Shown here: piece by piece, positions 42,234-61,580 of the stretch
How the letters are laid out: each line of letters starts with the position of its first letter
Numbering within the stretch: position 1 is the first letter of the stretch
IMG/VR virus record: IMGVR_UViG_3300047476_000982
Span: 32,001-96,000 of that record
From: a virus
Direction: 5' to 3' (one strand)
DNA: 64,000 nt
Program-made: the position numbers and the translations under genes
Notes under the pieces: model-generated
What the model saw: the letters and a program-made list of their open reading frames with translations, nothing else
Told to the model about the DNA's origin: nothing
Database searches by the model: none

Positions 42234-42820
42234 TTCATTATTTTCAATAATCTTCCAAATACATCTTTAGCTACTCCCTTATTATATGCTGAGTCTGGGA
42301 TAAACTTAACAAACTCTTCAAAGTTACCATCTTTAATTGTAGCTCTCATTTGAGTTGCAGATATTCTACCAAATTGTGCAGGTATAATTTGAGGTCTTAT
42401 TTTATTAGGGAATCTTTTTTGTATAGAATCAAAATATCCTAATTCTGTTTGTTCTTCTTCACCTGATGCAACATAAACTGGATCAATATCTGGGTTCTCT
42501 GCCATAAAAGAAAAGATATCTTTTATAGGTGTTGACTCTTTAGATATTGATACTTCTATTTTAGGATTAGGTTCTGCTTTTAAATATTCTTGCCAAATAT
42601 AAAGAGAATCTTCAGGAGTTATACCGTACTTAGTAACATTAGATATAACAACATATACCTTATTAATATAATTTAGTGATGCTAAATACTTTGCAGCTTC
42701 AAAATGTCCTTTATGAGGAGGCTTAAATTTACCAGGGTAAAAACAAGGGCCTACATCTGGAGATGCTTCTTTTAATATATCCTCTGCTATCTGTCTTCCT
42801 AGTTGTTCGAAGTTAATCAT
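42230..42820 (-). CDS. HxGH-family nucleotidyltransferase (cytidylyltransferase/NadD-like)
   Basis: PGKFKPPHKGH and ISATQMR motifs. Confidence 0.8.
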   Translation of the reverse strand: MINFEQLGRQIAEDILKEASPDVGPCFYPGKFKPPHKGHFEAAKYLASLNYINKVYVVISNVTKYGITPEDSLYIWQEYLKAEPNPKIEVSISKESTPIKDIFSFMAENPDIDPVYVASGEEEQTELGYFDSIQKRFPNKIRPQIIPAQFGRISATQMRATIKDGNFEEFVKFIPDSAYNKGVAKDVFGRLLKIMK

Positions 42821-43605
42821 GACTTAATAAATGATTTTGCTTTAGACACAACATTTTCAATACTATCATCTTTTAAAGACTCAACTTGCTTTTCTATATC
42901 TTCAAATTGTCCTGATAAGATGTCTATTTGTTTATCCACTAACTCTTTAGATTTTGCTTTCTCCTCAGGTGATTTTTCCTTGGCGGGATCTTTTCTAAAG
43001 GTAGAAGTAAATTGTCCAGAAGATAATAGCTCAGAAAAGAATTCTTTTAATTTACCAGAATTGTAGGCTTTCATAAAAGCGTCTACCATTTTCTTTTCAG
43101 CAGGACTTACATCAGTTTGAACTAGTAAAAAATTATCTCCAAACATACTTTTATATGTAGAGATATTTTTATATACGTTATTCCAACTTGACAATACTCC
43201 AACTGTTGGTACCTTTCTTTCTCTCTTAAAGTTTCTTAAGAAGCTAACTACTGGATTGGTGTAGACCATAATCATCATTACATCGTATCCAGCAGATTCT
43301 ATACCCTTCACTCTTTCTACATTTGTTCCTGTAGTATCGTAAAGAAAGTTTTTTCCTGATTTTATTGCATTAGGAAGATCAACTTTCTCGATATAACTAG
43401 AAGCTTTGCCCAGACTATTATACATAGGACTATCTTTGTCTTCTACATACTTGTCTGCATTTAGTTCTTCCCAGCCTGCTTTTTGAAGATCTGGTTGTAA
43501 TTGCCTAACTACACTGGACTTGCCTGCACCTGCTCCGCCAGCCATAACAATAGCCTTACTACCATTTTCAGGTTGTTCTTTTAATAAATCTAGTAGCTTA
43601 ATCAT
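42817..43605 (-). CDS. P-loop kinase (zeta-toxin/AAA_33-like)
   Basis: MAGGAGAGKS Walker A, LNADKY, FLYDTTG; preceded by the MIKLLDLLKE tag. Confidence 0.8.
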   Translation of the reverse strand: MIKLLDLLKEQPENGSKAIVMAGGAGAGKSSVVRQLQPDLQKAGWEELNADKYVEDKDSPMYNSLGKASSYIEKVDLPNAIKSGKNFLYDTTGTNVERVKGIESAGYDVMMIMVYTNPVVSFLRNFKRERKVPTVGVLSSWNNVYKNISTYKSMFGDNFLLVQTDVSPAEKKMVDAFMKAYNSGKLKEFFSELLSSGQFTSTFRKDPAKEKSPEEKAKSKELVDKQIDILSGQFEDIEKQVESLKDDSIENVVSKAKSFIKS

Positions 43606-43620: not shown

Positions 43621-44414
43621 TAATCTGTAAGTTTAACGGTATTAGGCAGAGTAAGTAATTCAATCTCAGACTCAGGATGCATAATCTTATAAGTCTCATA
43701 GGTATGCAAGAACATACTAAAGTACTCGTCAACTGTCTTCTTTCCTTCAATTATTTCCCAACCTGCACCTTGCATTTTTTTGCCTGCCTTATCTGCCCCT
43801 CTTTTAGAAGATTTAAGCCATATGATACCGTTACGATCCACTTTTTGGAGGTATCTTTCTTCATAAGCTTTAGTGTAGGCTGACATTTGTAAGTAGTAGC
43901 TTTCATGAACTGAGTTTGATGTTTTGATATCTAATAACCACTTTTCTCCTTTAATATCTACCAATAGATCTAAAGTACCAGAATATTTGTAGGTGTCACT
44001 AAACATGAATTCTTCTGATAGTAAAAGAGTTGGTTTGTAGGTTGTCCAGAAGTCTGTAAAACTTAAAATCATTTTCCATACATGTGTATGATAATTAACT
44101 TTACCATCAGGTTCAATCCATCTAATTTCTTCACCCTTTAAGAATTTTTCTACGGCATTGTGGACTTGAGTTCCCTCATCGCCAGCGCGACGCATAACAA
44201 TATCAGCATTATGGCCCATGTCTTTAATCCAAGTTTCGAAAAAAGCACCTTTCGGAAAGTAACCAAGAATTGTGGTAACAGACGGATAAAAAACCCCAGG
44301 CGATCTTTGATAATATCTAGAATCATGTAATGTAATTTGTCTAAGTTCAGGATCTGTTTCAACGATTCTTTTTAAGAACTTGTCTCGATAGACATTCTTG
44401 TTTTGTTCGATCAT
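43620..44414 (-). CDS. PD-(D/E)xK exonuclease (RecB/Cas4-like)
   Basis: YPSVTTIL, GTQVH, YSGTLDLL, LLDIKTS, LQMSAY. Confidence 0.85.
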   Translation of the reverse strand: MIEQNKNVYRDKFLKRIVETDPELRQITLHDSRYYQRSPGVFYPSVTTILGYFPKGAFFETWIKDMGHNADIVMRRAGDEGTQVHNAVEKFLKGEEIRWIEPDGKVNYHTHVWKMILSFTDFWTTYKPTLLLSEEFMFSDTYKYSGTLDLLVDIKGEKWLLDIKTSNSVHESYYLQMSAYTKAYEERYLQKVDRNGIIWLKSSKRGADKAGKKMQGAGWEIIEGKKTVDEYFSMFLHTYETYKIMHPESEIELLTLPNTVKLTD

Positions 44415-45340
44415 ATTAGTTGTATTTTTTTGAGAAGCAGGTCTCCGAAAGACAGTGGCTTCGCAGTATGTAATAACTTGGTCATATTATTAAAACCAAG
44501 GTCAGAAGGATCTTTACCTTCTAATTCTATTAAATAAACTTCTTTACCTAAATTAAGAAGATTTTGTGAATAATCTAGTGCTTCTTTAAGAGCATCTTTG
44601 TCTAATGCCAAATATACTGTTTTTACTTCAGATTCTACTAATTTCATCATGAGTGACTGAGGAATAGTTTTACCAAATAAAGGAATAGCATTACGTTTAA
44701 TTGCAATAGCATCAAAAATACCTTCACATAATATAACAGGAATAGACCAATTAATAAAATACTCTAGACCTATAAGTTCTGTTTTATTACAACTAGGAGC
44801 ATCATATTTACGAGAAGGATCAGGTTCAAATGATCTAGCAATAAAATAATTTACATTTCCATCTTTATCATATGAAGGCACTATAATTCTATTTCTGTAT
44901 CTTCCTGTTTTACAGTATCCAATATTATACTTTTGTATATCTTTAATAGAAATGTTTCTTTTCTTTAAATAGGCTAAAGCATGTCTACACTCAAGAGATT
45001 TATCTGGATTATATAATGAAATGAATTCTTCCGGTAGGGTTACTTTATTTGGTTTAGTAGTATCAATCTTTGTATTATCTCCTTGAAAATAGTTTTTCAT
45101 TTCGATAATTTTTTCAGTAGGAGCATCTACTTTTTTTAATAGCGACACTGGTGTTTTGCCTTTAGTAGCAGGGTGACAAGTCCAACAATTATATTGTCCA
45201 GACTTAATATTCACTATTAACTTAGGATTATGATGCTTACAAACTGGGCAATAGAATGCATAATCCATAGTGGTTTTAGATCCTTTTCCTTTACCAAGAA
45301 CTGTTTCTAATAATCCTAATACGAGTAACTCTTTGTCCAT
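44411..45340 (-). CDS. DNA primase (zinc-binding domain plus TOPRIM)
   Basis: YCPVCKHH...NCWTC zinc finger; ILCEGIFDA and LALDKDA TOPRIM motifs. Confidence 0.9.
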   Translation of the reverse strand: MDKELLVLGLLETVLGKGKGSKTTMDYAFYCPVCKHHNPKLIVNIKSGQYNCWTCHPATKGKTPVSLLKKVDAPTEKIIEMKNYFQGDNTKIDTTKPNKVTLPEEFISLYNPDKSLECRHALAYLKKRNISIKDIQKYNIGYCKTGRYRNRIIVPSYDKDGNVNYFIARSFEPDPSRKYDAPSCNKTELIGLEYFINWSIPVILCEGIFDAIAIKRNAIPLFGKTIPQSLMMKLVESEVKTVYLALDKDALKEALDYSQNLLNLGKEVYLIELEGKDPSDLGFNNMTKLLHTAKPLSFGDLLLKKIQLI

Positions 45341-45344
45341 TTAT

Positions 45345-45352
45345 CAAATATA
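45345..45352 (-). promoter_or_regulatory. TATATTTG, exact match to the Bacteroidota -7 box TAnnTTTG
   Basis: 4 nt upstream of the primase ATG. Confidence 0.6.
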
Positions 45353-45375
45353 AGACAAAAAAATGACATAAAAAA

Positions 45376-45383
45376 ATATTTAT
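45376..45383 (+). promoter_or_regulatory. ATATTTAT motif at the strand switch
   Basis: Plus-strand copy upstream of the structured non-coding region. Confidence 0.4.
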
Positions 45384-45413
45384 TAAAAAAAATTTTTCTG
45401 TTTCAAATATTTG

Positions 45414-45424
45414 TTGTATATTGG
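45414..45424 (+). promoter_or_regulatory. TTGTATATTGG putative early/host-type promoter
   Basis: One mismatch from TAnnTTTG; immediately precedes the structured region. Confidence 0.5.
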
Positions 45425-45690
45425 TAAAACTAATGTCGTATACTCAGGCTCTATGCCATAGCTTGGTTAAATTCCATGAGTGAGTTTTAGAATGAGTAAG
45501 CAACACGACTACCAGGAGTAAAGACCAATATATGCTTCAGGTATACAAAAATAGTTGGTAGTGAAAGCCTAAAATAATATCGGCCATATCCGACGGTTTA
45601 GTCCGCTAAAGGATTTTAGATATAAGCTACAGATGAAAAACAAAGTCAATTACACTCTAAAAAAAGGCTAAATACCTTTAAACTAGCTAT
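45425..45690 (+). ncRNA. Candidate structured non-coding RNA of unknown class
   Basis: Only very short ORFs; richer in G+C than the flanking A/T tracts; at least 8 complementary helices including a possible pseudoknot. Confidence 0.55.
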
Positions 45691-45691
45691 T

Positions 45692-45859
45692 ATGCAAGTA
45701 GAAGATTTTCAAATAGAAGGAGATAAAATAACAGAAGAGCAATTAAATGCACTATATATTTACTTATCGATGACATTTGATACTATGAAAGACGAAGAAA
45801 AAATGACGTGGTATCAAATAATGCAAAAAATAGATAAAGAATTTTATGAACAAGATTAA
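45692..45859 (+). CDS. Small hypothetical protein (55 aa, MQVEDFQIEGDKITEEQLNALYIYL...)
   Basis: Manual translation; overlaps the next gene. Confidence 0.65.
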   Translation: MQVEDFQIEGDKITEEQLNALYIYLSMTFDTMKDEEKMTWYQIMQKIDKEFYEQD

Positions 45860-46166
45860 ATTATTATTACTAGAAGGTTGTAGTAAGTGTGAAAAACTAA
45901 AGCAAGAATTAGGTAGAAACTATATTCATTACGATTATGAAGTTTGTAAATCGGATACGGAACTTTGTGATTCTATTGAAGATTTAATAGGATGCTCTAA
46001 CTATCCTATAGTATTAAAAATGATAAATACTAACTTTATAGAAGAAATAATTTATATAGCAAATATATATGAAGATATAAATAAAAAAATTATATTTAAT
46101 GATAAAATTAAAGGTAAAGCATTTCACTCTATAGATCAATTGATAGAGTATACAATAAAGTTGTAA
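45846..46166 (+). CDS. Glutaredoxin/thioredoxin-fold protein
   Basis: LLLLEGCSKCEKLK CxxC motif; NYP cis-Pro-like motif. Confidence 0.65.
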   Translation: MNKIKLLLLEGCSKCEKLKQELGRNYIHYDYEVCKSDTELCDSIEDLIGCSNYPIVLKMINTNFIEEIIYIANIYEDINKKIIFNDKIKGKAFHSIDQLIEYTIKL

Positions 46167-46175
46167 ATTTATAGT

Positions 46176-46352
46176 ATGAAATATAAACAATTAATATTAA
46201 GGAAAATATTCGAATTAAATAATTTGATAAATTCCCAAAGAGCTTTAGTATCTACTGCTAGATCACAAGATGAAATTAATTTTCATTTAGATAGAATAAA
46301 ATCTAAAATAGAAGAAATTGAAGTCTTAATAAATAGTGAAAGTGAATTCTAA
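46176..46352 (+). CDS. Small helical hypothetical protein (58 aa, MKYKQLILRKIFELNNL...)
   Basis: Manual translation; fills the gap in the operon. Confidence 0.65.
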   Translation: MKYKQLILRKIFELNNLINSQRALVSTARSQDEINFHLDRIKSKIEEIEVLINSESEF

Positions 46353-46366
46353 ATAAAAAATAAGTT

Positions 46367-46996
46367 ATGAAAAAATTAAGTCCTGAGCAAATGGCGGAAA
46401 ATTTAGCCAAGTTTTATTCTTTAATTGACAAATATATTTCTGGAATGAGGAAAGATAAACTTCTAGAAATGTATAAAGATATTGAAGAAACTCTTGCTAC
46501 TTCTCCGGCATCAACTAAAGTAAGTCACCATAATGCTTTTGCTGGTGGTTATTTAGATCATGTTATTAGAGTTACTGAAGCAGCTTTAGTATTTGAAAAG
46601 GTTTGGGATAAATTTGGCCAGAATAAAAATTATACAACTGAAGAACTAGCCTTCTCAGCACTTAATCATGATCTTGGTAAACTAGGTACAAATGATGAAC
46701 CTGTTTACATTCCTAATCAGTCACAATGGCATAGAGAGAATCAAGGTCTTATGTTTAATTACAATCCTGCTATAACTCATATGAGAATTGCAGAAAGAAG
46801 TTTGTTCGTACTTCAGAAGTATGGTATCCAGGTCTCAGAGAATGAGTTTCTAGCTATCAGGTTACATGATGGTTTATATGAAGAAGCAAATAAACAATAT
46901 TATATTACTTATAATAAAGATACAGAATTAAGGTCTAATATCGCTTATATACTACATCAAGCAGATTTGATGTCTAGTAAAATTGAATCAAACTAA
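46367..46996 (+). CDS. HD-domain phosphohydrolase
   Basis: HNAFAGGYLDHV, LNHDLGK, IRLHDG, LHQAD. Confidence 0.9.
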   Translation: MKKLSPEQMAENLAKFYSLIDKYISGMRKDKLLEMYKDIEETLATSPASTKVSHHNAFAGGYLDHVIRVTEAALVFEKVWDKFGQNKNYTTEELAFSALNHDLGKLGTNDEPVYIPNQSQWHRENQGLMFNYNPAITHMRIAERSLFVLQKYGIQVSENEFLAIRLHDGLYEEANKQYYITYNKDTELRSNIAYILHQADLMSSKIESN

Positions 46997-47008
46997 AATT
47001 AATATATT

Positions 47009-47281
47009 ATGACAATAGGAATTATAGCCCTTATAGTTTGGGCTGTATCTATAATAGGATACATAATTTGGAACTTATTCCAAAAGAATAGAAGACTAGA
47101 ATCAATGGTAATTACCCAACAGTTGTTTATTGACAATATCAAAGACTGTATGAAAGAGATTAACATTGCTGCAAATCAAATTGATTCTAAATTATGGGTT
47201 CAGTCTGATCCTGAGTTTTTGAGCCTTATGGAAAATGTGAAACAAATGCAAACTAGGATTAACGAATTCATAGAAGAATAA
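47009..47281 (+). CDS. Small membrane-anchored protein
   Basis: N-terminal hydrophobic helix followed by an amphipathic helix. Confidence 0.7.
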   Translation: MTIGIIALIVWAVSIIGYIIWNLFQKNRRLESMVITQQLFIDNIKDCMKEINIAANQIDSKLWVQSDPEFLSLMENVKQMQTRINEFIEE

Positions 47282-47282
47282 T

Positions 47283-48035
47283 ATGACTGACATACTATTA
47301 AATGAGGAAGAGGTTCTTTTAACTAAAAAAGGAGAACCTAGAAAGAGAAAGCCTAAAACGAAAAATAACTACTTTACAATAGAAACCGAAGAGGCTATTC
47401 TAAGATATAGAGCTGCAAAAAATCAAGCTGAGAGGAATCGAATTTACAATCAAGATATTCACTACGGGTTTTATAAGCTAGTAGAGAACATTATTCATAC
47501 ATTTAAGTTCTACTATACAGAGGTTGACAACATAGAGGATCTTAAGTATGAAGTAATATCTTTCCTCCTTCAAAAACTAGACCTTTATGATCAATCTAAA
47601 GGTAAAGCCTATTCTTATTTTGGTACAATTGCAAAAAGATATTTGATTATATATAACCAAAAGAATTATAAAAAACTTGTAGCCAAGGCAGATATTGGAG
47701 AACAGAATGATGATGACGCATTATTAAATAGCATCCTTGTAAAAGAACCAGAACCAGAGCTAGATAAACTAGATGTGGTCGAGCTTTTTATTAAATACGT
47801 AGATGACAATTTATTAGAACTATTCGACAAAACAGATGAAATAAAGGTAGCAGATGCTATCCTAGAAATATTCAAAAAGAGGGAAAATATAGATATTTTT
47901 AATAAAAAAGCCGTTTTTATATATGTTAAAGAAATGGCTGACACGCAATCAAATACCATTACGAAAGTAATTAAAAAGCTAAAAAACATCTACAGAACTA
48001 TCCTCAATCAATATCTTGAAAACAATGACTATTAA
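47283..48035 (+). CDS. Phage sigma factor, T4 gp55-like (late transcription)
   Basis: KLVENII, IEDLKYEVISFLLQKLDLYDQSKGKAYSYFGTIAKRYL: sigma region-2-like motif. Confidence 0.7.
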   Translation: MTDILLNEEEVLLTKKGEPRKRKPKTKNNYFTIETEEAILRYRAAKNQAERNRIYNQDIHYGFYKLVENIIHTFKFYYTEVDNIEDLKYEVISFLLQKLDLYDQSKGKAYSYFGTIAKRYLIIYNQKNYKKLVAKADIGEQNDDDALLNSILVKEPEPELDKLDVVELFIKYVDDNLLELFDKTDEIKVADAILEIFKKRENIDIFNKKAVFIYVKEMADTQSNTITKVIKKLKNIYRTILNQYLENNDY

Positions 48036-48042
48036 TATTTAT
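48035..48042 (+). promoter_or_regulatory. ATATTTAT putative late promoter
   Basis: 11 nt upstream of the ATG at 48054; overlaps the sigma gene stop. Confidence 0.65.
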
Positions 48043-48053
48043 TCTAAAAAGTC

Positions 48054-48416
48054 ATGGAACTTGATAAGGAAATATTCAAAGGTAAAACTATTGCCAATCT
48101 TGTAGAAGAGGTATACGATAAGCAAAAAAATCAAGATTCTACAATCAAACAGGAGATCATGAGGCTTGCCGATATGATTGAAACTCCTGGTGATGCTATT
48201 GTAGTTGTTCCACTACTTAAAGGATTTATAGACTCTAGTTTAAAGAATGATGAGGTTCTTCTTAAACTACTTAATCTTTTTCAAAAAGCTGCGGAAAATA
48301 AAAAAGCAGGTGATACAGAAGATTCTGGTATTCTTACAGAAAAAGATATTGAGCAACTATTTTCTGAGGTTTCTACTATTAAAATCAAGGATCCTAAACA
48401 ACTACCTAGTGCATAA
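48054..48416 (+). CDS. Hypothetical helical protein (120 aa)
   Basis: ORF track; first gene after a late motif. Confidence 0.7.
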   Translation: MELDKEIFKGKTIANLVEEVYDKQKNQDSTIKQEIMRLADMIETPGDAIVVVPLLKGFIDSSLKNDEVLLKLLNLFQKAAENKKAGDTEDSGILTEKDIEQLFSEVSTIKIKDPKQLPSA

Positions 48417-49339
48417 TGGCTACTAATTTTTTTCAAAATAATCCTACAGCACCAGAATCTATTGGTGGACAATATTTCCAAATAGGAAGAGTTAAAGAAG
48501 TAGTGATGGGGCCTTATAAAGGAGGGACTAATGAAATAGATAAAGATTATAATAGTCCTGCAGACATAGGAAAAATAAGATATCAAATTTTATATTCAAA
48601 TTTTAATACATCTAGAGCAGAAGAAATTTCAGAACCTGCTTATCCTATTTTTAATTTTGTAAAACAGTATCCTTTAGTAAATGAAATTGTTTTTATTATA
48701 ACTGGCCCTACTGAAAGACTCAATGATAAAATAACAAACCAGCAGTTCTTTTATTTCCCGGCTTATAATCTTTGGAACCATCCTAATCATGGCGCGTTTC
48801 CTAACTTACAAGAATATCAGAATTTTTTATTAGAATTTTCTCAACAACCTGGATATTCTGGAAATCCTATAGAGCTACCAGATTTACCTTTTGGTTATAC
48901 TTTTTTAGAAAAACAAGATGTTTTAAATTTACAACCTTTTGAAGGAGATACTATTTTACAAGGAAGATTTGGCCAGACAATAAGACTAGGTAGTACAACG
49001 GTACCTGAATTAAAAGAATATAATAGTTGGTCACCTACAGGTAGTGTAGGAGATCCAATTACTATAATAGTAAATAAATTAGGTCCATCAAAGTCACTTT
49101 CTAAATTTGATCCAGGAATTGAAGATATTAATTCTGACGGAGCTTCTATATATTTAACTTCTACTCAACAGATATCTTTACAGGATATAAATAATTTCCC
49201 TAGAAATTCTTTTAAAGAAAAACAACAAGAAGTAATATCTAGGCCTATTATAAAAACATTCCCAAAACCTATTTCTACTGATGCTACATCTGCTGATGCT
49301 CAAGATAAAATAGCAACACAAAATTCCCCAACCGTATAA
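48416..49339 (+). CDS. Baseplate hub/spike-associated protein (gp5 N-terminal OB-like)
   Basis: QYPLVNEIVFII, EGDTILQGRFGQTIRLGST; baseplate context. Confidence 0.55.
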   Translation: MATNFFQNNPTAPESIGGQYFQIGRVKEVVMGPYKGGTNEIDKDYNSPADIGKIRYQILYSNFNTSRAEEISEPAYPIFNFVKQYPLVNEIVFIITGPTERLNDKITNQQFFYFPAYNLWNHPNHGAFPNLQEYQNFLLEFSQQPGYSGNPIELPDLPFGYTFLEKQDVLNLQPFEGDTILQGRFGQTIRLGSTTVPELKEYNSWSPTGSVGDPITIIVNKLGPSKSLSKFDPGIEDINSDGASIYLTSTQQISLQDINNFPRNSFKEKQQEVISRPIIKTFPKPISTDATSADAQDKIATQNSPTV

Positions 49340-49340
49340 A

Positions 49341-49778
49341 ATGGCAGCACCTATTCCATATAATCCTCAATTTCCTTTTGCAGGCGAACAAATAGTTTTA
49401 TCTGCTGATAGGGTTACTTTGCATTCTAAAAATGATGCAATTTTTCTTTTTGGTAAACAAGCTGTTGGTTTATCATCTATAAAAACTATAAATTTAGATG
49501 CAAACCAAGAAATATTATTATACTGTAAAAAAATTACTTTAGGACCAAATGCTAAACAACCTCTTGTATTAGGAAAATTTTTTAATGAAAGATTAAAACT
49601 TTTTGTACAAGAACTTCAATCCGTTTCTATCTTATTAGCACAAAGCTCTGAATCAGAAATAGGTACTAGTATGCAATCAATAGCTTCCGCAGGTAAAAAA
49701 TTAAACGAGGCTTGTGAAAAAATGTTAAATGTTATAAAAAACGATTCATTTTTATCTAAAAATACTTTTACAAAATGA
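49341..49778 (+). CDS. Baseplate spike-like protein (gp5 C-terminal-like)
   Basis: ADRVTLHSKNDAIFLFGKQAVGLSS beta-rich pattern; PLVLG motif. Confidence 0.5.
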   Translation: MAAPIPYNPQFPFAGEQIVLSADRVTLHSKNDAIFLFGKQAVGLSSIKTINLDANQEILLYCKKITLGPNAKQPLVLGKFFNERLKLFVQELQSVSILLAQSSESEIGTSMQSIASAGKKLNEACEKMLNVIKNDSFLSKNTFTK

Positions 49779-51529
49779 GTCTTACTAGAAATTTAGTAAA
49801 TGATAAATTAAATATAAATACTACATCTGCAAAAGGTTTAGAAAAAGCTATTGCAGCAATCGCTACATTTGTAATTAATGCTCAAAGTAAAACAGATGGC
49901 ATAATTTATGGAAAATATGCACTAAATGAAGATCAAGGGAATTTAATTACAAGAGCATTTGATAAAGGAATTATTTATATATTAGAAAGAATTTCAACAG
50001 TAGATTTTTGTAATTTAATTAATTATTTAATAAACCAAATACCTGGAGGTAAACCTTTTAATCCAGCAGATCCAATACCTTCTGATCCTATAGCTAGAAA
50101 AAAATGGCAATTACAAAAATTAGCTTTTGATATACAAAAAATAATTGATGGATATTTTGCAAGTTATGGTGATGCAAATAATCCAGAAAGTAGATTAGGC
50201 TTATACAATCTTATTCAAAGTATAAGAAATAATTTTACTGGATTAATAGACACTTTAAATGATCCTGAGATAAGAGAAGCATTTCCTGAGGTTTCTATAG
50301 TCTCTAATTTTATTACAGATAAATTAAGCTATTTTGATAAATACGGAAGTGTTAATGCTATTCCTATTGAAGAAGTTCAAAAAATTATATCTGTAGTAGA
50401 AAAAACAAGAGCTATTTGTGCTACTGTCCAAGCTATTAATACTCCTGCTGCATTATTAGCAAATGCTGATTTTCTTTTAGGCGGACAAATACAAGAAGAA
50501 ATAGCTAGATTAAATAGAGAAATACCAGTAGAGAAAATCATACCTGTTTTAAAAAATTTATTAAAACAAGCTAAAAATGTTTCTTCAATTGCCCAAAAAA
50601 TTGTTTCATATATAAATAGTTCAAGAGTTTTTATACGTTTATTTTTAATACTTTTAAAGGTATTTTATATACTAAGAAAATTCCTTTTTGGTATCCCTAT
50701 TCCAAATGTGTATACAACTTCTGGTGTTACTACACTTTTATCTAATATAAATGAAGATGTTGTTGGAGCAAAAGGAATAGATAAACTTGTAAAAAGACTT
50801 CAACAAATAAATTTTGTTCTAAATTTAATTGCTATTTTTGCAACTTCTCTTGTTGCTGGTATGCAAATTATAATAGATAGATTAAATATAATACTTAATA
50901 ATTTAGAAGCTTGCTCAAATGTAGAAGAAGAAATTAAAAAAGAAATTGAAGATACAATAAATTCACTAGAAAATTCTATTACCCCACTAAGAAATTTTTT
51001 AGATCAATTTAATTCAAGATCAGAAAGAGCATTAAGAAATATAGGAGATTATAATATAGAAATAATTTCAGAATCTACTGTAGATGAAGGAATATCAATT
51101 AGAAGAAGATATGGAATTGCAAGAGATACTAATGGATATGTAGTGGTACAATCCAATCCTACTTTTGCATCTTTAGATTTAATAATAATAAATGAGGTAA
51201 AATTTTTATTATATTCTAAAGGTTTAATAAAATCTAATATACCGTCTTTATCACCTAGTGATTTAGCTATAGTATTAGAATCTACAAGATTTCTTGATGA
51301 AGATGAAGTATCATTAGGAGATTTAGATACCAATTTGGATGGTGTAGGATCTATTTTTGAAGAAAATAAAGAATTAGGAATTTCTTCATTTGTTGATAAT
51401 CTCCAAGGAGGTAAAGCTCTTAAAAAGAGGGTTAGAAGCGCACTAGCCAAACAAAATCAAAATCTTACAAGTGACTTAAATTCAGTTGATCCTAACTCAA
51501 AATATAAATCAAACATAATTAAACAGTAA
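49775..51529 (+). CDS. Hypothetical baseplate-region protein (584 aa)
   Basis: ORF track; helical, with a hydrophobic central stretch. Confidence 0.7.
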   Translation: MSLTRNLVNDKLNINTTSAKGLEKAIAAIATFVINAQSKTDGIIYGKYALNEDQGNLITRAFDKGIIYILERISTVDFCNLINYLINQIPGGKPFNPADPIPSDPIARKKWQLQKLAFDIQKIIDGYFASYGDANNPESRLGLYNLIQSIRNNFTGLIDTLNDPEIREAFPEVSIVSNFITDKLSYFDKYGSVNAIPIEEVQKIISVVEKTRAICATVQAINTPAALLANADFLLGGQIQEEIARLNREIPVEKIIPVLKNLLKQAKNVSSIAQKIVSYINSSRVFIRLFLILLKVFYILRKFLFGIPIPNVYTTSGVTTLLSNINEDVVGAKGIDKLVKRLQQINFVLNLIAIFATSLVAGMQIIIDRLNIILNNLEACSNVEEEIKKEIEDTINSLENSITPLRNFLDQFNSRSERALRNIGDYNIEIISESTVDEGISIRRRYGIARDTNGYVVVQSNPTFASLDLIIINEVKFLLYSKGLIKSNIPSLSPSDLAIVLESTRFLDEDEVSLGDLDTNLDGVGSIFEENKELGISSFVDNLQGGKALKKRVRSALAKQNQNLTSDLNSVDPNSKYKSNIIKQ

Positions 51530-51541
51530 TTTACAAGTAAA

Positions 51542-51549
51542 ATATTTAT
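51542..51549 (+). promoter_or_regulatory. ATATTTAT putative late promoter
   Basis: 5 nt upstream of the ATG at 51555. Confidence 0.65.
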
Positions 51550-51554
51550 AAGAT

Positions 51555-51995
51555 ATGGGACAAGTAGACCAATTAAGGAAATTAATTAGAGAAGAGCTTA
51601 GAGCGGTTCTTAAGGAGGAGCTTCCTAAACTATTAAGTGAGGTTAAGAAAACTCCTATGGCAGATCCTAAAAAAAGCTTACAGGAGCAGGTAAAATCAAA
51701 AATACCTGGAACTTTAAATACTCAAACTCCTAAACCTATTAAATTTGCAGGAAATAATCCTATGGCAGCATTTTTAAATGATACCGCCCAAACTATGTTA
51801 AATGAGGATTTTAATATGACCTCTGATAGTGTGCATCCAGGACTTGCTTTTCAACCTAAAGAAGTTAAAGTTGGTAGTATAGAAGGAATGCTAGGAACGG
51901 CTAGACCAAGCTCAAATTTAGATGCAGTACAAATAAATGAAGTTCCTGACTTTAGTGCTTTAATGGGAAAACTTAAAGAGCAAGGACAAATATAA
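51555..51995 (+). CDS. Hypothetical protein (146 aa)
   Basis: ORF track; LRKLIREELRAVLKEE N-terminus. Confidence 0.7.
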   Translation: MGQVDQLRKLIREELRAVLKEELPKLLSEVKKTPMADPKKSLQEQVKSKIPGTLNTQTPKPIKFAGNNPMAAFLNDTAQTMLNEDFNMTSDSVHPGLAFQPKEVKVGSIEGMLGTARPSSNLDAVQINEVPDFSALMGKLKEQGQI

Positions 51996-52408
51996 TGGCA
52001 TACGGATTAAAACAAATATCACCATTAGATTTAAAACCTTCAACAGCAATTGGAGTAAAAATACCTTTTGACGCTGAAAATGTATTCTCATCTGTATATA
52101 CTACGAAAGATCAATTAAAATATAATATAATAAATTATCTCTTAACAGATCCTGGTGAAAGAGTTTTTAATCCAACTTTTGGAGCCGGACTTAGAGCTAG
52201 ATTATTTGAACAAATAGATGAACAAAGTTTTGAAGAAATAGAACAATCTATAAGAACACAAATGGAAAATCAGTTTCCTCAAATACAAATAGTTAATTTA
52301 AATGTAGTTCCTAGCCCTGATTATAATTCTATAAATATAAAATTTAGTTACAGATTATTAACTTCAAATGAAAATGATTCAGTTATATTAACTGTTCAAA
52401 ATATGTAA
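51995..52408 (+). CDS. gp25: Baseplate wedge protein, gp25-like
   Basis: LLTDPGERVFNPTFGAGLRARLFE. Confidence 0.9.
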   Translation: MAYGLKQISPLDLKPSTAIGVKIPFDAENVFSSVYTTKDQLKYNIINYLLTDPGERVFNPTFGAGLRARLFEQIDEQSFEEIEQSIRTQMENQFPQIQIVNLNVVPSPDYNSINIKFSYRLLTSNENDSVILTVQNM

Positions 52409-52410
52409 AA

Positions 52411-54270
52411 ATGGCAACAAATATTGACATAAGATATTTAAATAAAGATTTTTCTACTTTCAAGTCAGATCTTATAGAATATGCAAGAGCATACTATCCT
52501 ACTGTATATAATGATTTTACACAGGCTAGTCCAGGTAGTATGTTCATAGATATGTCTTCTTATGTTGGAGATGTTCTTTCATTTTATTTAGATAATCAAA
52601 TCCAAGAAACTTTTTTACAATATTCAAAGCAAAAAAATAATTTATATACTTTAGCTTATATGTTAGGTTATAGACCTAAAATAACATCTGCTGCTATAGT
52701 AAATCTTGATGTGTATCAACAAATACCAGCAGTTAATATAGGTGGTGGAGATGTTGGACCAGATTTTACTTATGCATTTACTTTAGAACAAGGAATGCAA
52801 GTTAGATCAAATGTAGATAATTCAGTAACATTTTATGTTCCTCAAAAAATTAATTTTGCCGCCTCTTCTTCATTAGATCCTACTACAGTTGAAGTATATA
52901 CTTTAAATGGTTCAAATGTGCCCACTTCTTATCTACTAAGAAAAACTGTACAAGCTATATCAGGATTAGTAAAAACTCAAAATTTTAGTTTTTCTGCACC
53001 GCAAAGATTTTCAACAATTACTATAAATGATAATTCAATAATTACAATATTAGATGCAAAAGATTCTGATGGTAATACTTGGTATGAGGTTCCTTATTTA
53101 GCGCAAGATTATATATTAAAACCTGTAGAAAATACTGCGGCTAATTATCCTTCACTATATCAATTTCAAAATCAAGTTCCTTATATGATACAGAAAATAT
53201 CTGTACCTAGAAGGTTTACATCTAGATTTAGATCTGATGGATCATTAGAAATAGAATTTGGTCCTGGTATTAATTCTGTTGCTGATACATCTGTGCTTCC
53301 AAATCCTAATAATGTAAGTGTAGGATTAACAGGTGGTGGTCTTAGCACTTTATCTAGTTCATTTGATCCAACAAATTTTGTAACAACACAAACTTATGGA
53401 TTAGCTCCAAAAAATACTACGATAACTTTTCAATATTTAGTAGGAGGGGGAGCAAAATCAAATGTTCTTTCTAATCAATTAACTCAAATAACTTCTTATA
53501 CACTATCAGGAAATTCTTCATTTGAAAATACTTTGATTGTAAATAATGCAGACCCTGCTTCAGGTGGAGGAGACGGAGATTCTGTTGATGAACTTAGAAT
53601 GAATATAGCCGCAGAGTTTCCTACTCAATATAGAGCAGTAACTCAAGAAGATTATTTAGCTAGAACACTTAGCATGCCTGCTCAATATGGCAAAGTTTCT
53701 AAAGCATATATAACTAAAGATGATGCTACATTTAATAATTACATGCAAGGAGACGTTAGTCAAAAAGATCAAGTTTTAGTTAGTCTATATGTACTAGGTC
53801 TTAATTCTACTAATAATTTAGCAAATCCTTCGCCAGCTTTACTTCAAAATTTACAGACATATCTTTCTGATTATAGAATGATGACAGATGCTGTTAATAT
53901 AAAACCCGCTTATATAATTAATATAGGATGTGACTTTGAAATTGTAATTAGACCTAATTATACAAGTCAAGATGTAATTGCTAGATGCATATTAGCACTA
54001 CAAAACTTTTTCAATATAAATAACTGGCAAATAAATGAACCTATTATATTAGGAGATGTTTATGCTTTATTAGATGTTGTTGAAGGCGTTCAAACTGTAA
54101 ATGATATAAGAATAGTAAATAAAACAGGAGAGGCTGATGGATATTCAAAATATTCTTATGATATCTCAGCTGGTACTTTGAACGGGGTGATATATCCGTC
54201 TTTAGATCCTTCTATATTTGAAGTAAAATATCCTAATACAGATATTCAAGGTCGTGTAGTAACAATGTAA
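52411..54270 (+). CDS. gp6: Baseplate wedge protein, T4 gp6-like
   Basis: YLNKDFSTFKSDLIEY, SYVGDVLSFYLD, GGGDGDSVDELR, QYRAVTQEDY. Confidence 0.9.
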   Translation: MATNIDIRYLNKDFSTFKSDLIEYARAYYPTVYNDFTQASPGSMFIDMSSYVGDVLSFYLDNQIQETFLQYSKQKNNLYTLAYMLGYRPKITSAAIVNLDVYQQIPAVNIGGGDVGPDFTYAFTLEQGMQVRSNVDNSVTFYVPQKINFAASSSLDPTTVEVYTLNGSNVPTSYLLRKTVQAISGLVKTQNFSFSAPQRFSTITINDNSIITILDAKDSDGNTWYEVPYLAQDYILKPVENTAANYPSLYQFQNQVPYMIQKISVPRRFTSRFRSDGSLEIEFGPGINSVADTSVLPNPNNVSVGLTGGGLSTLSSSFDPTNFVTTQTYGLAPKNTTITFQYLVGGGAKSNVLSNQLTQITSYTLSGNSSFENTLIVNNADPASGGGDGDSVDELRMNIAAEFPTQYRAVTQEDYLARTLSMPAQYGKVSKAYITKDDATFNNYMQGDVSQKDQVLVSLYVLGLNSTNNLANPSPALLQNLQTYLSDYRMMTDAVNIKPAYIINIGCDFEIVIRPNYTSQDVIARCILALQNFFNINNWQINEPIILGDVYALLDVVEGVQTVNDIRIVNKTGEADGYSKYSYDISAGTLNGVIYPSLDPSIFEVKYPNTDIQGRVVTM

Positions 54271-54282
54271 AAAAAATAAAAA

Positions 54283-55389
54283 ATGGCCGTATATAAAATA
54301 TTTGCATCTTCTGATACTACTTTATATTCAAGTAGTCCTGCTGCTAATGCTGGTCTTGATGAAATATTAGAAATATCAGTTAAAAATTCAGATAATCCAT
54401 CTAATTATTTTGTAGATCCAGTACCATCAGAACCTTTACTTCAAGATAATTTAAGAAGAGCAATTATATCTTTTTCAGATGTAGATATTGCTACATTAAA
54501 ATCTTTTACTACTGGATCTTGGAAAACTAATTTAAGGTTATTCTTAGCTACCGCTGAAAATTTAAATACAACTTACAGTTTAGAAGTAAGGCAAGTTTCT
54601 CAGTCTTGGCAAATGGGCACAGGCAAATTTGGAGATGAACCAGAAAATAGAAATGGTGCTTGTTGGTATAGTCCTAATCAATTTATAACCGCTTCTAATC
54701 AATGGGGAAATGGATCTTATTATTTAACTCCTGGTGGCGGTTCATGGACAAATGGTGCAGTTACTCAATCATTTGGATATTCTGATAGTAAAGATATAAA
54801 CGTAGACGTTAGTTCTATAGTTAACACTTGGTTTAGTGGTTCATATCCTAATTATGGATTTTTAATAAAACATCCAAATGTTATTGAACAAAACTCTGGT
54901 AGTTATATAGGGTTAAGTTTTTTCTCAGTTGATACCCATACTATTTATCCTCCAACATTAGAAATAAAATGGGATGATAGTTCATATTCTACAGGAAGTC
55001 TTTCTGTAATTAATAATACAGACAGTGTAATAACACTATCTAATAATTTAGATACTTACAAATACGGAACCGGAAAATATAAATTTAATATAAATGTAAG
55101 AGATAAATATCCGGTAAGAACTTTTACTACTTCTTCTTTATATACAACAAATAAAGCACTTCCACAAACATCTTATTGGGCTTTACAAGATGTAAAGACA
55201 AATGATATATTAATAGATTACGATACTACGTACACAAAGATTAGTTGTGATGGAACAAATAGTTATTTTAACTTATATATGAATGGATTAGAACCAGAAA
55301 GATATTATAAAATATTAATTAAAACTGTATTATCTGATGGTGAATCTTATGAAATAGACAATAACTTAATATTTAAAGTTACTAGATAA
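54283..55389 (+). CDS. Probable baseplate/virion structural protein (368 aa)
   Basis: ORF track; beta-rich; baseplate operon. Confidence 0.6.
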   Translation: MAVYKIFASSDTTLYSSSPAANAGLDEILEISVKNSDNPSNYFVDPVPSEPLLQDNLRRAIISFSDVDIATLKSFTTGSWKTNLRLFLATAENLNTTYSLEVRQVSQSWQMGTGKFGDEPENRNGACWYSPNQFITASNQWGNGSYYLTPGGGSWTNGAVTQSFGYSDSKDINVDVSSIVNTWFSGSYPNYGFLIKHPNVIEQNSGSYIGLSFFSVDTHTIYPPTLEIKWDDSSYSTGSLSVINNTDSVITLSNNLDTYKYGTGKYKFNINVRDKYPVRTFTTSSLYTTNKALPQTSYWALQDVKTNDILIDYDTTYTKISCDGTNSYFNLYMNGLEPERYYKILIKTVLSDGESYEIDNNLIFKVTR

Positions 55390-55727
55390 TGACAAATATT
55401 GAATTAACAAAAGAAATATATGGTTTAAATACATATACAAAAGCTATTGATACAGATTTTGAAGAACTTATACCTCAAGAAACTCCTGTAACTTCTAGCA
55501 TTGTAACTGTAGATGAATTTTTTACTTATTATAATGATTTGTTTTTTGATATTCCTGTATCTGGATCTATAAATTCTCATACATATTTAGTTGAAACAAG
55601 TCAACAATATATAGGAGGTTCTGTACTTGATGCTGAAAAGCAAGCGCTTATAGAAGAAATAAATTCTTTAAGACAGCAAATACTAGATATAAATCAATCA
55701 TTAAATGATATAAACAATATAGTATAA
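55389..55727 (+). CDS. Hypothetical virion protein (112 aa)
   Basis: ORF track; coupled to both neighbours. Confidence 0.7.
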   Translation: MTNIELTKEIYGLNTYTKAIDTDFEELIPQETPVTSSIVTVDEFFTYYNDLFFDIPVSGSINSHTYLVETSQQYIGGSVLDAEKQALIEEINSLRQQILDINQSLNDINNIV

Positions 55728-58700
55728 TGGAATTAGTTAATATTGAATATAGCGGAAGAGGAAATGACTTAGGACAGCTATCTTCACAAGATAGATCTTT
55801 AGTCACAACTAATTTTATAAATACTTCTTTTGGAAATCCTAGTGATTATTTAGAACTTTTTATTTATGATGAAAATAACTTATTATTATTTTCTGATTAT
55901 AATGCATTTGATTATTATCCTTACTTATTAAATAATCCTCAAAATAATACGTACTCAGCTCTTTCTTTAGATCCTGAAAAAGATTTAAAAAATAGAGGGT
56001 TTTTTAGAGGGGATTTAAATATAAAATATAATTTTTATACAAAATTATTTAATTCTTCATTTGGTACTTACTATTGGATAAAAGAAATTTCTCCATCAAG
56101 AAAAGAAATAAAATTAGCATCTCAAACATTAAGTAATGATATTATAAGAGGGGGATTTCTTTCATACCAATCTTATATTGCTACTAAAAATTATTATCCT
56201 GTATTTTATTTAAATTTTGGAGAAAATCAAATTGTAGCTGCAAACAATGTTGCATATACAGAAGATGATGATGGCTCTTACTTAATAATAAAATTATATG
56301 AACCTTTACCTATTGAGTTTGGATTAAAATCTCAATTATGGATAATAGATAAAGTAGCAGAGTCAGTTAGTTTTAATGTATCTATTACTGTTGAGGCAGA
56401 AAATATACAAGAATTAAATAGATTAAGAGGACCTAACTTTAATGTTCAAATAAATGATAAAAACGGTCAGACTACACCATATTATAATTATAATAACTTA
56501 TTAGCTAGCCCTGTAAGTTCTTCATATCAAAAATTATTAAGTTACTATCAAGATAGATCAGTAGCTATAAATGTAGATTACACTAACTTTTCAAACTTTA
56601 TACATTTCTCAAGTGCAGTAGAAAGAGTAAATAATTTTGTTTATAAAGTAGGATTAATAGAACAATATAAAAATCAACAATATAGCCAATCTTTAGTAGC
56701 TGGTGGATCTGGGAATGTTACTTACGCTGTGAATTCTATAGATGTTTCTCAACAAGCTATAGATAATATAATAGAGAAATTTGATACTTATGAATATTTT
56801 TTATATTTTAATTCTTCAAGTTGGGCATGGCCTAAATCAAACTCAACACAACCATATCAATTATATTCAGTAACATCTTCTCAAGTTAGTAATTTTTTAG
56901 GTTCTGAAAATGCAGTTCCTACAGCTACTACACAATCTTTATTATTTAGTGCATCTTATTATGATTCTACTAATAAAGATCTACTTCATAATTCTATTCC
57001 TCAGTACTTATTAGATGATCCAAATAATCAATCTTTCATTACCTTTATGGATATGATTGGTCAGCACTTTGATAATATTTGGATATACTATAAAGATGTT
57101 TCTAATAGGTATAATGCTACAAATAATCCTGATACAGGAATATCATTAGACGTTGTTGGAGACGCTTTAAGAGGATTCGGTATTCAATTATATACAAATT
57201 CAAACATATCAGATAACCTCTATTATACATTGTTTGGATTGAATACAGATGGATCTTTATTACCTCCGACTGGTTCAGAAAAAATAACTGCAATTGGAGG
57301 AAATTATGTTACTTCAAGTTTAGAAACACTTTCTGCGAAAGAAATTCAGCAGGAATTATATAAAAGACTCTATCATAATTTACCGTACTTACTAAAAAGT
57401 AAAGGTACTGAAAGGGGTGTTAAGGCACTTATAAGTACATTTGGTATTCCTGATAATATTTTAACTGTTAGAGAATTTGGAGGAACTCCAATAGATTCTG
57501 TAGACGGTATATTTGATTTAGATTCTTCTGCTTATAAAGTTACTATTGTAACAGGAAGTAGTGGAAATGTTACTGGTAGTTTAACACTATCGTCATCATT
57601 ATTACATCCTGAAGCAAGTTTACAGTATTATCAAAATATTAATAGAATTAATACTACTAATATAGAAGTTGGATTTTCCCCAGCAGATACTATTAATGAC
57701 AATATAGTTTCATCTGAAGGATATTTTGATATAAACCAACTAATATCTTCTCCTGGATACCAATACTCTTCATCTTATTTGCCTCTTGATGATTTTAAAA
57801 ACACATACTTTAGTAATTATACTGAACCTAATAGTATTTGGGAGTATATAAGACTTATTAAGTTTTATAATAACTCTTTATTTAAAATGATTAAAGATTA
57901 TGTTCCTGCTAGATCAAATTTATCTACAGGCATAATAGTTAAATCTCATATGTTAGAGAGAAATAAATATGCTAGACATGAACCTAGTTCTAGTTTTAAT
58001 GATAATTACTCTCAATCTATAGATACTGCATTTATAAGTGGCTCATCTGCAGGATCTGTTATAGGATCTACTGCATTTACAGGAAGTATAATAACTCCAT
58101 CAGGATCTATACAATTTATAAGCTCAGATGGAATAGAAAAATATAATGGCGAATTTAGTGGTTCTACTATAATAGTTACAGATGGTCAAGCTCTTCCTCA
58201 ATTTGAAATATCACAACTTCCGTCTAGTTCTTTATATGTAACTTACTCATTAGGAGCACTTTATCAAAATGTTACACAATCTGTAAGATCTCAAATTCTT
58301 TTTGATTTAGATTATAATTCAGATCAAATAAAAGCAGTTAATTATGGAATAGTTACTAAATCTATGAATGATGCGCAAATAGATAATTATACAACATATA
58401 CTAATCCAAATAATCCTTATGCGTATGTTCAAGACTATAATTATAATTTAAAAAGATCTGTTATTCCTAGATATAGCGGATCTTATATACAAAGTGCACT
58501 ATATAATGTTTACACAGCAGGAGATATTTCTTATGGTAAAACAGCAACTATAGATAAGATAAAATATCAATATGCTTATTTAGTTGACATATATTCTGCG
58601 TCTTTTCAATTACCTCAAAGAGCTAACGCTCAAATTAAATATTTTATAGACAATAATGAAAATGTATTAGATTTAACTAAATTAAACACTAATATATTTA

Positions 58701-59824: not shown

Positions 59825-59827
59825 CAC

Positions 59828-59835
59828 ATATTTAT
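59828..59835 (+). promoter_or_regulatory. ATATTTAT putative late promoter
   Basis: Upstream of the ATG at 59852. Confidence 0.65.
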
Positions 59836-59851
59836 TTAAAAGCCCATTTAT

Positions 59852-60511
59852 ATGTCATATTTAAGTAGCACATCGGTAGTAGTAGATGCAATTCTTACGG
59901 CAAAGGGTCGAGAACTCTTAGCAAGAAACGATGGATCTTTCAGAATTACTCAATTTAGTTTAGCCGACGACGAGGTAGACTATACACTTTATAATCCAAA
60001 CCATCCTTCAGGATCTGCATTTTACGGAGAAGCAATTGAAGCTATGCCAATAATTCAAGCGTATCCTAATGATACAGAAATCATGAAGTATAAATTAATT
60101 ACTCTTCCTAGAGGAACTGCCAAGATCCCTGTATTAGATTTGGGATATTCTGCAATAACTATAAAACAAGGTGCTTCTTTAGCAATTACACCTCAAACAT
60201 TAAATTATTTAGGCGCAACATCTACATTTGAACAATCAGGATATGTAGCTACTATAGGAGATGTAAGAACTATGAGCTCTTTCAATGGTGTTGGAATTAA
60301 CACTCCTGAAGCAACTTCTTTAAATGCTACTACAACTATTGGAACAAATGTAAGTAAAACAGTTATAGGAACAACAATTAACTTGACTGCTACTACTGTT
60401 AATACTTTGTTTGGTTCTAACTCTTCTTTATATACTACATTAGTAGTTGTAGGTCGTGATTCTGGAGCTAGAATTTCTATACCTGTAACAATTATAAAAG
60501 TAAACTCATAA
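59852..60511 (+). CDS. Probable virion structural protein (219 aa)
   Basis: VDAILTAKGRELLA, FSLADDEVDY. Confidence 0.65.
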   Translation: MSYLSSTSVVVDAILTAKGRELLARNDGSFRITQFSLADDEVDYTLYNPNHPSGSAFYGEAIEAMPIIQAYPNDTEIMKYKLITLPRGTAKIPVLDLGYSAITIKQGASLAITPQTLNYLGATSTFEQSGYVATIGDVRTMSSFNGVGINTPEATSLNATTTIGTNVSKTVIGTTINLTATTVNTLFGSNSSLYTTLVVVGRDSGARISIPVTIIKVNS

Positions 60512-60522
60512 TATATTAACAC

Positions 60523-61557: not shown

Positions 61558-61580
61558 TAAAATACCTTAACAGTTTATAA

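Follow-up and report, generated by a model that had tools for sequence, protein, structure and literature searches.

GOLLD and ROOL, two of the large orphan RNAs, occur in phage DNA as well, the lariat-capping ribozyme acts just upstream of an open reading frame (ORF), and HK022 put and Bacillus EAR are structured leader RNAs that lie right after a promoter and act on the same transcript. In T4-type phages, the pseudoknot of the gene 32 mRNA leader, a subject taken up in PMC10690425, is an autogenous translational operator, and the same article by Fremin and co-workers (2023) reports 8495 unnamed candidate structured RNAs of 29-151 nucleotides (nt) from IMG/VR (PMC10690425). Here we describe an RNA of about 250 nt in IMG/VR virus record IMGVR_UViG_3300047476_000982, of which positions 32,001 to 96,000 were analyzed (the window, 64,000 nt). 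It lies at 45428-45680 on the + strand, between a DnaG-type primase gene and a divergently oriented small ORF. It is almost certainly a real, functional structured RNA and, judged by the searches below, appears to be previously uncatalogued, with no match to a known family.

The window was compared with the 4227 models of Rfam 15, among them riboswitches, ribozymes, GOLLD, ROOL, OLE, raiA, 6S, RNase P and SRP. At gathering thresholds there were no matches in the whole window, and within 45300-45750 at E up to 10 only chance-level ones appeared (mir-7, 17.8 bits; SAM-II, 15 bits; STnc410, 12.6 bits), all of them well short of their gathering thresholds. ARAGORN found no tRNA or tmRNA genes in the window. 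Like GOLLD, ROOL, raiA, OLE and HEARO, the RNA is long, contains many helices, pseudoknots and many invariant unpaired nucleotides, and was found by comparative analysis. Unlike these, it measures about 250 nt, against 200-800 nt, matches no Rfam model and keeps a strictly fixed place as an operon leader in one phage lineage. [quoted passage not shown] The candidates of Fremin and co-workers come from the same source database and likewise rest on covariation in intergenic regions of uncultured phages. They differ, as far as the article's text characterizes them, in being 29-151 nt long and not individually described; the present RNA is set apart from them by description, with an overlap of fragments possible, and the main text of that article does not mention primase (PMC10690425).

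A sequence-only reading of this locus had proposed a novel noncoding RNA (ncRNA) or regulatory leader of about 260 nt after a promoter-like box. The proposal is borne out by more than 70 homologues, strong covariation, the lack of an Rfam or ARAGORN match and a conserved TATATT in the box. Homologues were collected from IMG/VR by a primase-anchored search, which returned 56 loci with a primase identity of 67-99% and intergenic DNA that could be aligned in nearly all of them. The family was then widened with two DNA patterns derived from invariant blocks (TACCNGGNGNNAAG..GCNTCNGGTA and GGTATANANA..ATATCG..CGACGG), and these scans brought in contigs of greater divergence, whose primases are as little as 53% identical. 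In total, IMG/VR holds at least 70 distinct full-length homologues; the 48 that share less than 93% mutual identity form alignment A2, on which the covariation and conservation figures are based. A scan of JGI/ENA metagenomes yielded 58 further matches, with a primase only 50% identical on one such contig. Chance matches in coding DNA account for approximately 25 of 83 metagenome matches and for several viral ones too. Wherever flanks are available, the gene order is the same: the divergent primase, the RNA, and then, on the strand of the RNA, the 55-aa, 106-aa, (58-aa), HD, 90-aa and 250-aa ORFs.

Standard pairs occupy 87.5% of the 2984 cells of the model; shuffling the columns gives 75.4%, and sliding the 3' partners along by 1-3 columns gives 33-44%. 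The sequence-only reading had pointed to covariation in the relatives' primase-adjacent region as a check, and the homologues found there show changes on both sides in 45 of 64 pairs; the shuffle mean is 31.8, and none of 500 shuffles reaches 45. Double-change cells number 378 versus 119 in shuffles, and the covariation score is 0.340 versus 0.144 for shuffled and 0.06-0.10 for slid columns. Compensatory changes are present in every helix except P8. A mutual-information scan with average product correction (APC) ranked the model's helices at the top and gave no further long-range helix.

The fold was read from alignments and then tested on A2. It comprises ten helices and two pseudoknots (PK1 and PK2), arranged as domain 1 (P1-P3b), P4, a three-way-junction domain (P5-P8) and a tail that carries the 3' strands of both pseudoknots:

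45428-45680, + strand: whole structured RNA, about 250 nt, supported by covariation on A2, conserved G-U pairs, and profile and covariance model (CM) matches
45435-45509, + strand: domain 1, an irregular rod, supported by covariation on A2
45435-39 / 45505-09, + strand: helix P1, with 5 of 5 pairs changed on both sides
45441-46 / 45493-98, + strand: helix P2, with 6 of 6 pairs changed on both sides
45450-53 / 45488-91, + strand: helix P3, from A2
45455-59 / 45480-85, + strand: helix P3a, with a conserved U.G pair
45462-66 / 45474-78, + strand: helix P3b, with a 7-nt loop at 45467-73 (UNNRANU)
45510-19 / 45534-43, + strand: helix P4, UACC-A-GGAGY / RCUUC-A-GGUA, with a conserved A.A mismatch and G.U pair
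45544-45553, + strand: junction J4/5 (UAUACAAAAAUA; in RNA form UAUANAAANA), with A at alternate positions invariant in A2
45554-45634, + strand: three-way-junction domain, with invariant AAUAUCG, CGACGG and AUAA (45622-25)
45554-61 / 45627-34, + strand: helix P5, with all 7 pairs changed on both sides
45568-75 / 45613-20, + strand: helix P6, with all 8 pairs changed on both sides
45580-83 / 45590-93, + strand: helix P7, with 2 covarying pairs
45594-96 / 45603-05, + strand: helix P8, invariant CGG/CCG without compensatory change, kept across loops of 6-12 nt

The variation behind these helices is considerable. P1 occurs as GUCGU/ACGAC, GUAAAG/CUUUAC or GAGAUU/AAUCUC, and P6 as CUAAAAU/AUUUUAG, GAACACC/GGUGUUC or GGGAGAG/CUGUCCC. 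Covarying pairs of domain 1 are among the top pairs by mutual information, and pair 45458:45481 of P3a occurs as A-U (30 sequences) or G-C (18). The 7-nt loop of P3b looks T-loop-like by eye; tetraloop-receptor and K-turn motifs, sought in the same manner, gave no match. P4 is paired in 97.7% of cells and nearly invariant on both strands: compensatory change is limited to 2 of 9 pairs, for one of them to just 2 sequences, and the other 7 hardly vary. Its pair 45517:45536 is A-U in 33 sequences, C-G in 9, G-C in 3, U-G in 2 and U-A in 1. The orientation follows from the wobble pairs, since the almost invariant G.U of P4 and U.G of P3a would be A.C on the other strand; the RNA strand is the + strand.

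The loop of P4 (45520-33) holds the 5' strand of the first pseudoknot, and the tail takes part in three pairings:

45523-26 (GACC, P4 loop) / 45644-47 (AGUC), + strand: pseudoknot PK1, supported by covariation on A2
45607-12 (UAAAGG, J8/6) / 45675-80 (CCUUUA, tail), + strand: pseudoknot PK2, with seven covarying types
45663-45679, + strand: local hairpin P9 (AAAGG/CCUUU), in 33 of 60 sequences and with 74% of cells paired on A2

In PK1, one pair is C-G in 27 sequences, U-A in 6 and U-G in 3, and another is A-U in 39 and G-C in 1; matched variants seen by eye are GAC/GUC, GAU/AUC, GGUU/AGCC and GACA/UGUC. The types of PK2 are UAAAGG/CCUUUA, UAGGG/CCCUA, CAGGG/CCCUG, UAAGGG/CCCUUA, UAGAG/CUCUA, UAAGGU/ACCUU and UAUAG/CUAUA. 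Its mean duplex energy is -6.9 kcal/mol for cognate and -5.0 kcal/mol for non-cognate partners, and a junction binds the tail of its own sequence more strongly than 83% of the foreign ones. In the window, 11 nt separate the end of the PK2 3' strand from the ATG at 45692 (10 nt if A45681 is included in the duplex); across the family, this distance is mostly 8-18 nt, within a range of 8-68 nt. Mimicry of a Shine-Dalgarno (SD) or anti-SD sequence by PK2 was considered and rejected, as the pairing covaries toward sequences unlike SD. Since P9 and PK2 draw on one 3' strand, only one of them can form at a time. P9 is limited to the UAAAGG, UAGGG and UAGAG clades, where its 5' strand repeats the J8/6 motif.

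These data also permit an assessment of the fold proposed by the sequence-only reading, whose quoted sequence strings and coordinates were all correct when read against the window, and whose detailed fold appears, by comparison with relatives, to be about half right. Four of its helices are recovered with covariation in relatives: ACCAGGAG / CTTCAGGT as P4, CTAAAAT / ATTTTAG as P6, TCGG / CCGA as P7 and GTAG / CTAC as part of P5. GTCGT (45435-39) and ACGAC (45505-09) do pair, again with covariation, not as the pseudoknot that had been suggested but as the nested closing helix P1 of domain 1; a pseudoknotted RNA was nonetheless correctly foreseen, at another location, given the support for PK1 and PK2. 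TAAAACT / AGTTTTA is paired in only 55% of cells and not kept in relatives, and TACTCA, which had been assigned to TGAGTG (45477-82), has its actual partner in TGAGTA at 45493-98. The TTTAG / CTAAA hairpin gives way to CGG 45594-96 / CCG 45603-05 (P8), which frees AAAGG (45608-12) for its long-range pairing in PK2. Finally, AAAGG 45663-67 / CCTTT 45675-79 corresponds to P9 and is found in about half of the family, where it competes with PK2. Taken as a set, the four other helices of that fold are paired in 64.8% of cells versus 61.7% in shuffles, with 15 compensatory pairs versus 13.9, a number reached by 185 of 500 shuffles.

Beyond pairing, the RNA is under strong sequence constraint. Across the 48 representatives, 46 columns are invariant and 39 nearly so, and many conserved columns lie in junctions (UAGC..GGU, GGUAUA.A.A.A, AAUAUCG, CGACGG, AUAA). 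RNA columns are still conserved where the identity of the primase protein falls to 53-54% in the loci compared, and to 50% in one metagenome contig. In distant clades, the identity of the RNA core to the window plateaus at 55-63%, compared with 28-50% for primase third-codon positions in the same genomes. Large complex RNAs with many invariant unpaired nucleotides are often catalytic, and the RNA might act as a ribozyme, either self-cleaving or modifying the 5' end like the lariat-capping ribozyme, that would process or protect the operon mRNA. Its place directly upstream of an ORF, the double-pseudoknot architecture and the many invariant unpaired nucleotides would suit such a function. We nevertheless consider it improbable: no ribozyme family of Rfam matches even at E up to 10, and no candidate cleavage site can be named.

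Among the genomes searched, the distribution of the RNA is phage-only. Three near-complete genomes of 162-183 kb carry one copy each, and a CM of the P4-P8 core (R1) gives a single match in the window (45508-45639, 127 bits, E 3e-22). A blastn search of the RNA region against 50,697 phage records gave no match. The RNA was not found, by pattern or CM R1, in the genome of Flavobacterium phage immuto, whose primase gene is not at a divergent junction. CM R1 likewise had no match among 151 sampled Flavobacteriaceae genomes, with 22 candidates scored per genome, nor in two genomes of that family. A pattern scan of bacterial and archaeal genome contigs listed at least 120 stretches, and none of those fetched was a real homologue (best E 0.008); the RNA was thus not found in the cellular genomes searched, which is not the same as being absent from them. 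A looser pattern (AATATCG..CGACGG..CCG) gave mostly chance matches among the viral contig matches listed. Two contigs depart from the usual form. In contig L253 (1012-1338), P4, the three-way junction and both pseudoknot strands are kept; domain 1 is gone, as is most of the promoter region, and the primase ATG lies only about 33 nt from P4. This may be a natural minimal form or else a decaying copy. In contig L012 (1-335), with a primase 93% identical to that of the window, the family sequence is left right after the TATATT box and the RNA is missing. We did not accept it as an RNA-less relative, as the contig ends 335 nt upstream of the primase, which makes it an unreliable case and possibly an assembly join.

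The RNA occupies the space between two divergent transcription units, whose elements nearest to it are the following:

44411-45340, - strand: DnaG-type primase gene (Pfam DNAG_N, Zn ribbon, Toprim; synteny), the constant upstream neighbour of the RNA
45345-45352, - strand: leftward promoter-like box TATATTTG, identified from sequence and conserved in relatives, 4 nt before the primase ATG (45340-45338)
45417-45424, + strand: rightward promoter-like box TATATTGG, with TATATT (45417-22) conserved at a fixed distance from P1
45692-45859, + strand: first ORF of the rightward operon, 55 aa, acidic, with its ATG at 45692 and further ORFs after it
45846-46166, rightward operon: second ORF, 106 aa, with a CSKC (CxxC) motif near the N-terminus, thioredoxin-/glutaredoxin-like

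The gap between the primase and the 55-aa ORF measures 351 nt (45341-45691) and has no frame open for more than 50 codons from stop to stop; the RNA region is non-coding. An upstream ORF or small protein starting at the ATG at 45433 was rejected, since this codon is ACG, AAG or AGG in relatives. The sequence-only reading had taken this stretch for the only long non-coding one; other gaps of about 300 nt between ORFs of at least 100 aa are present elsewhere in the window. In the 48 representatives, the TATATT box is invariant or nearly so and lies 12-14 nt before P1, and rightward transcription would start at about 45427-45430, as judged from the sequence. The leftward box, only 4 nt from the primase ATG, implies a nearly leaderless primase mRNA. 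The -7 promoter consensus of Bacteroidota is TAnnTTTG, and both boxes, we presume, fit it. This agrees with kinship to a Flavobacterium phage, and the lineage probably infects Bacteroidota. A scan for sigma-70-type promoters found fewer sites than in shuffles, and the motif TTGNTATATT has no second copy in the window.

The two boxes are mirror images, TATATTTG on the - strand and TATATTGG on the + strand, within a 45-nt imperfect palindrome (71% complementary) across 45340-45429. The cumulative GC skew of the window turns, at its minimum, at the strand switch between the divergent gene blocks, and the palindrome at this turn could be an origin or operator too. This raises the question of whether the whole region acts as DNA, as a replication origin, an array of protein-binding sites, or the source of a primer or R-loop transcript, with its RNA helices incidental. 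The divergence of the gene blocks with the skew turn, the adjoining primase gene and the palindrome speak for such an element. We judge it very improbable nevertheless, because compensatory changes keep the pairing in 9 of 10 helices and the conserved G.U pairs work on one strand only. Moreover, the palindrome lies upstream of the RNA; an origin there is possible and does not explain 45435-45680.

The data above show the homologues, the fold, its strand and position and the phage-only distribution; the transcript, the switch, any ligand and the regulatory output are inferred. We tentatively read the RNA as a cis-regulatory, switch-like leader, a mechanism to which we give somewhat less than an even chance. 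The RNA would be transcribed from the TATATT box as the 5' leader of the rightward early operon, which comprises in order the 55-aa ORF, the thioredoxin-like ORF, the HD hydrolase and the 250-aa ORF. PK1, between the P4 loop and the tail, and PK2, between J8/6 and the tail, would lock the fold, and docking of the tail into the core through PK2 would compete with the local hairpin P9. The junctions, which are highly conserved, might bind a ligand or a protein, and this would set the access to the start region of the first ORF, or the stability of the operon mRNA. In keeping with such a leader, the RNA begins at the promoter box and ends just before the first ORF, and its strand 45675-80 has two alternative partners. 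As in a riboswitch aptamer, a covariation-supported fold lies between a conserved promoter box and the first ORF. With regard to an expression platform, PK2 and P9 depend on one common strand in 33 of 60 sequences; two clades lack P9, and no terminator accompanies the pair. Among described leaders, SAM-II/SAM-V, preQ1-II, cobalamin and glmS share the 5' leader position with a pseudoknot 3' strand just before the start codon, and pseudoknot-gated riboswitches also share a competing local hairpin, here in about half of the members. In contrast to them, the RNA has no metabolic gene association and no fixed spacing to the ATG, and the SAM-II match reaches 15 bits against a gathering threshold of 44 (E 3.9) and falls in the non-conserved tail. 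By analogy, the RNA would work most like the pseudoknot-gated leaders, and its complexity would resemble that of the large orphan RNAs.

Several observations weigh against this picture of a folded, switching leader. The minimum free energy (MFE) of -47.4 kcal/mol hardly differs from that of shuffles (-46.5 +/- 4.4, z -0.21), and the minus strand gives z +0.10. A folding energy equal to that of shuffled controls, which the sequence-only reading had named as refuting, is therefore what was found. The nested model fold on the window sequence has -35.4 kcal/mol, or -42.6 with extra pairs, compared with -45.5 for the unconstrained MFE. The helices of one sequence alone are thus not above chance; the evidence for structure comes from the relatives, and there the covariation outweighs the energy result. 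As to the switch, P9 is absent from the UAAGGG and CAGGG clades, about a fifth of the sequences have 20-68 nt between PK2 and the ATG, and a terminator scan found no intrinsic terminator, nor was any other recognizable expression platform seen 3' of the RNA. The genes that follow, checked for a shared pathway (small ORFs without family, the CxxC thioredoxin-like ORF, the HD phosphohydrolase and the 250-aa ORF), form no coherent metabolic pathway that would hint at a ligand. Lastly, with about 250 nt and two pseudoknots the RNA exceeds most aptamers in size, and these features would be just as fitting for a ribozyme or a trans-acting RNA.

The latter would be a stable ncRNA or the RNA of a ribonucleoprotein (RNP), produced early as the transcript's 5' end, from which it might be trimmed, and would bind a component of host or phage, such as RNA polymerase, the ribosome, an RNase or some defence protein, and redirect or block it. 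We regard such a function as unlikely, yet deserving of attention. In its size, its two pseudoknots and its approximately 85 invariant or nearly invariant positions, the RNA resembles large orphan or RNP RNAs more than simple operators. Its core is far better conserved than the next ORF, the 55-aa one, which tblastn fails to detect in several RNA-bearing clades; the distance to the ATG varies from 8 to 68 nt, and the RNA is placed behind an early-type promoter. Against these points stand the lack of a conserved terminator or processing signal at the 3' end, the 3' strand of PK2, which is usually very near the start codon, and the failure to identify a partner protein, the adjacent 55-aa ORF being acidic. 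More broadly, the RNA could belong to a new class of large phage RNAs that are active in themselves, be it as a ribozyme or as an early effector RNA that reprograms a host machine or defence; we see this as a serious possibility that is nonetheless rather more apt to fail than to hold. That such a class would be confined to an uncultured lineage of T4-like aquatic phages of 160-185 kb, probably infecting Bacteroidota, is conceivable to much the same degree.

The window itself is phage DNA with a G+C content of about 30%, in which two gene blocks diverge at 45.3-45.7 kb. The leftward block begins with the primase and a PD-(D/E)XK nuclease, with terminase, portal, capsid and tail genes later; the rightward block starts with small ORFs and the HD phosphohydrolase, followed later by baseplate genes, in a same-strand stretch of at least 18 kb. 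This arrangement brings to mind processive antitermination, in which the leader, while still being made, would attach to the transcribing RNA polymerase and enable it to pass the terminators of the rightward operon, as with put of HK022 or EAR. The RNA, like these, is structured and lies immediately 3' of a promoter, and it heads a long same-strand gene block; no fixed spacing to a start codon would be needed, which fits the observed 8-68 nt, and the nearly invariant P4 could be a polymerase-binding surface. However, 45300-64000 holds 6 terminator-like sites versus 5.1 +/- 2.0 in shuffles, hence no excess, and only 2 of them are on the + strand; put and EAR are several times smaller than the RNA, which matches neither in sequence or structure, nor any model in Rfam. 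We therefore hold antitermination to be a shade less probable even than a ribozyme.

Among the genes 3' of the RNA, the 55-aa ORF has no Pfam or PHROG family in domain searches, and the ESM Atlas returned unnamed clusters only, below 0.9; in every relative compared, the RNA is followed by homologues of it or by other small ORFs. The 106-aa ORF, without a match in Pfam and PHROG searches, is kept at the same position in all relatives. The 250-aa ORF (47283-48035), also without a Pfam or PHROG match, is among the best-conserved genes 3' of the RNA in most relatives (54-88% identity; 41% in contig L251). In the primase operon, a 262-aa protein (42817-43605) has a match to Pfam PF06414 (E 1e-10), the Zeta-toxin / P-loop kinase family. 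Farther away, a 3160-aa ORF (9841-19323, - strand) has a G+C content of 0.40-0.43, clearly above the approximately 0.30 of the remaining window, and long ORFs that overlap on both strands there suggest a repetitive or biased composition. The closest cultured relative is phage immuto, a 160-kb myophage (primase 42.5%, capsid 54.7% identity), followed by Microcystis phage Mel-JY01 and Rhodothermus phage RM378; the phage belongs to a distant T4-like group.

RNAs of such size and complexity without a known family are rare, and earlier ones, discovered likewise, proved to be riboswitches, ribozymes or unusual RNA assemblies. On comparative grounds, the present RNA appears to be a well-supported new family of unusual complexity. 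Its fold with two pseudoknots and its many natural compensatory variants make probing, ligand screens, ribozyme assays and structure determination feasible. The RNA has stayed strongly constrained even as identity among the proteins beside it dropped to about 50%, no copy turned up in the bacterial genomes sampled, and it is fixed at the head of the early operon across a whole lineage of abundant environmental T4-like phages, which suggests a central role early in infection.

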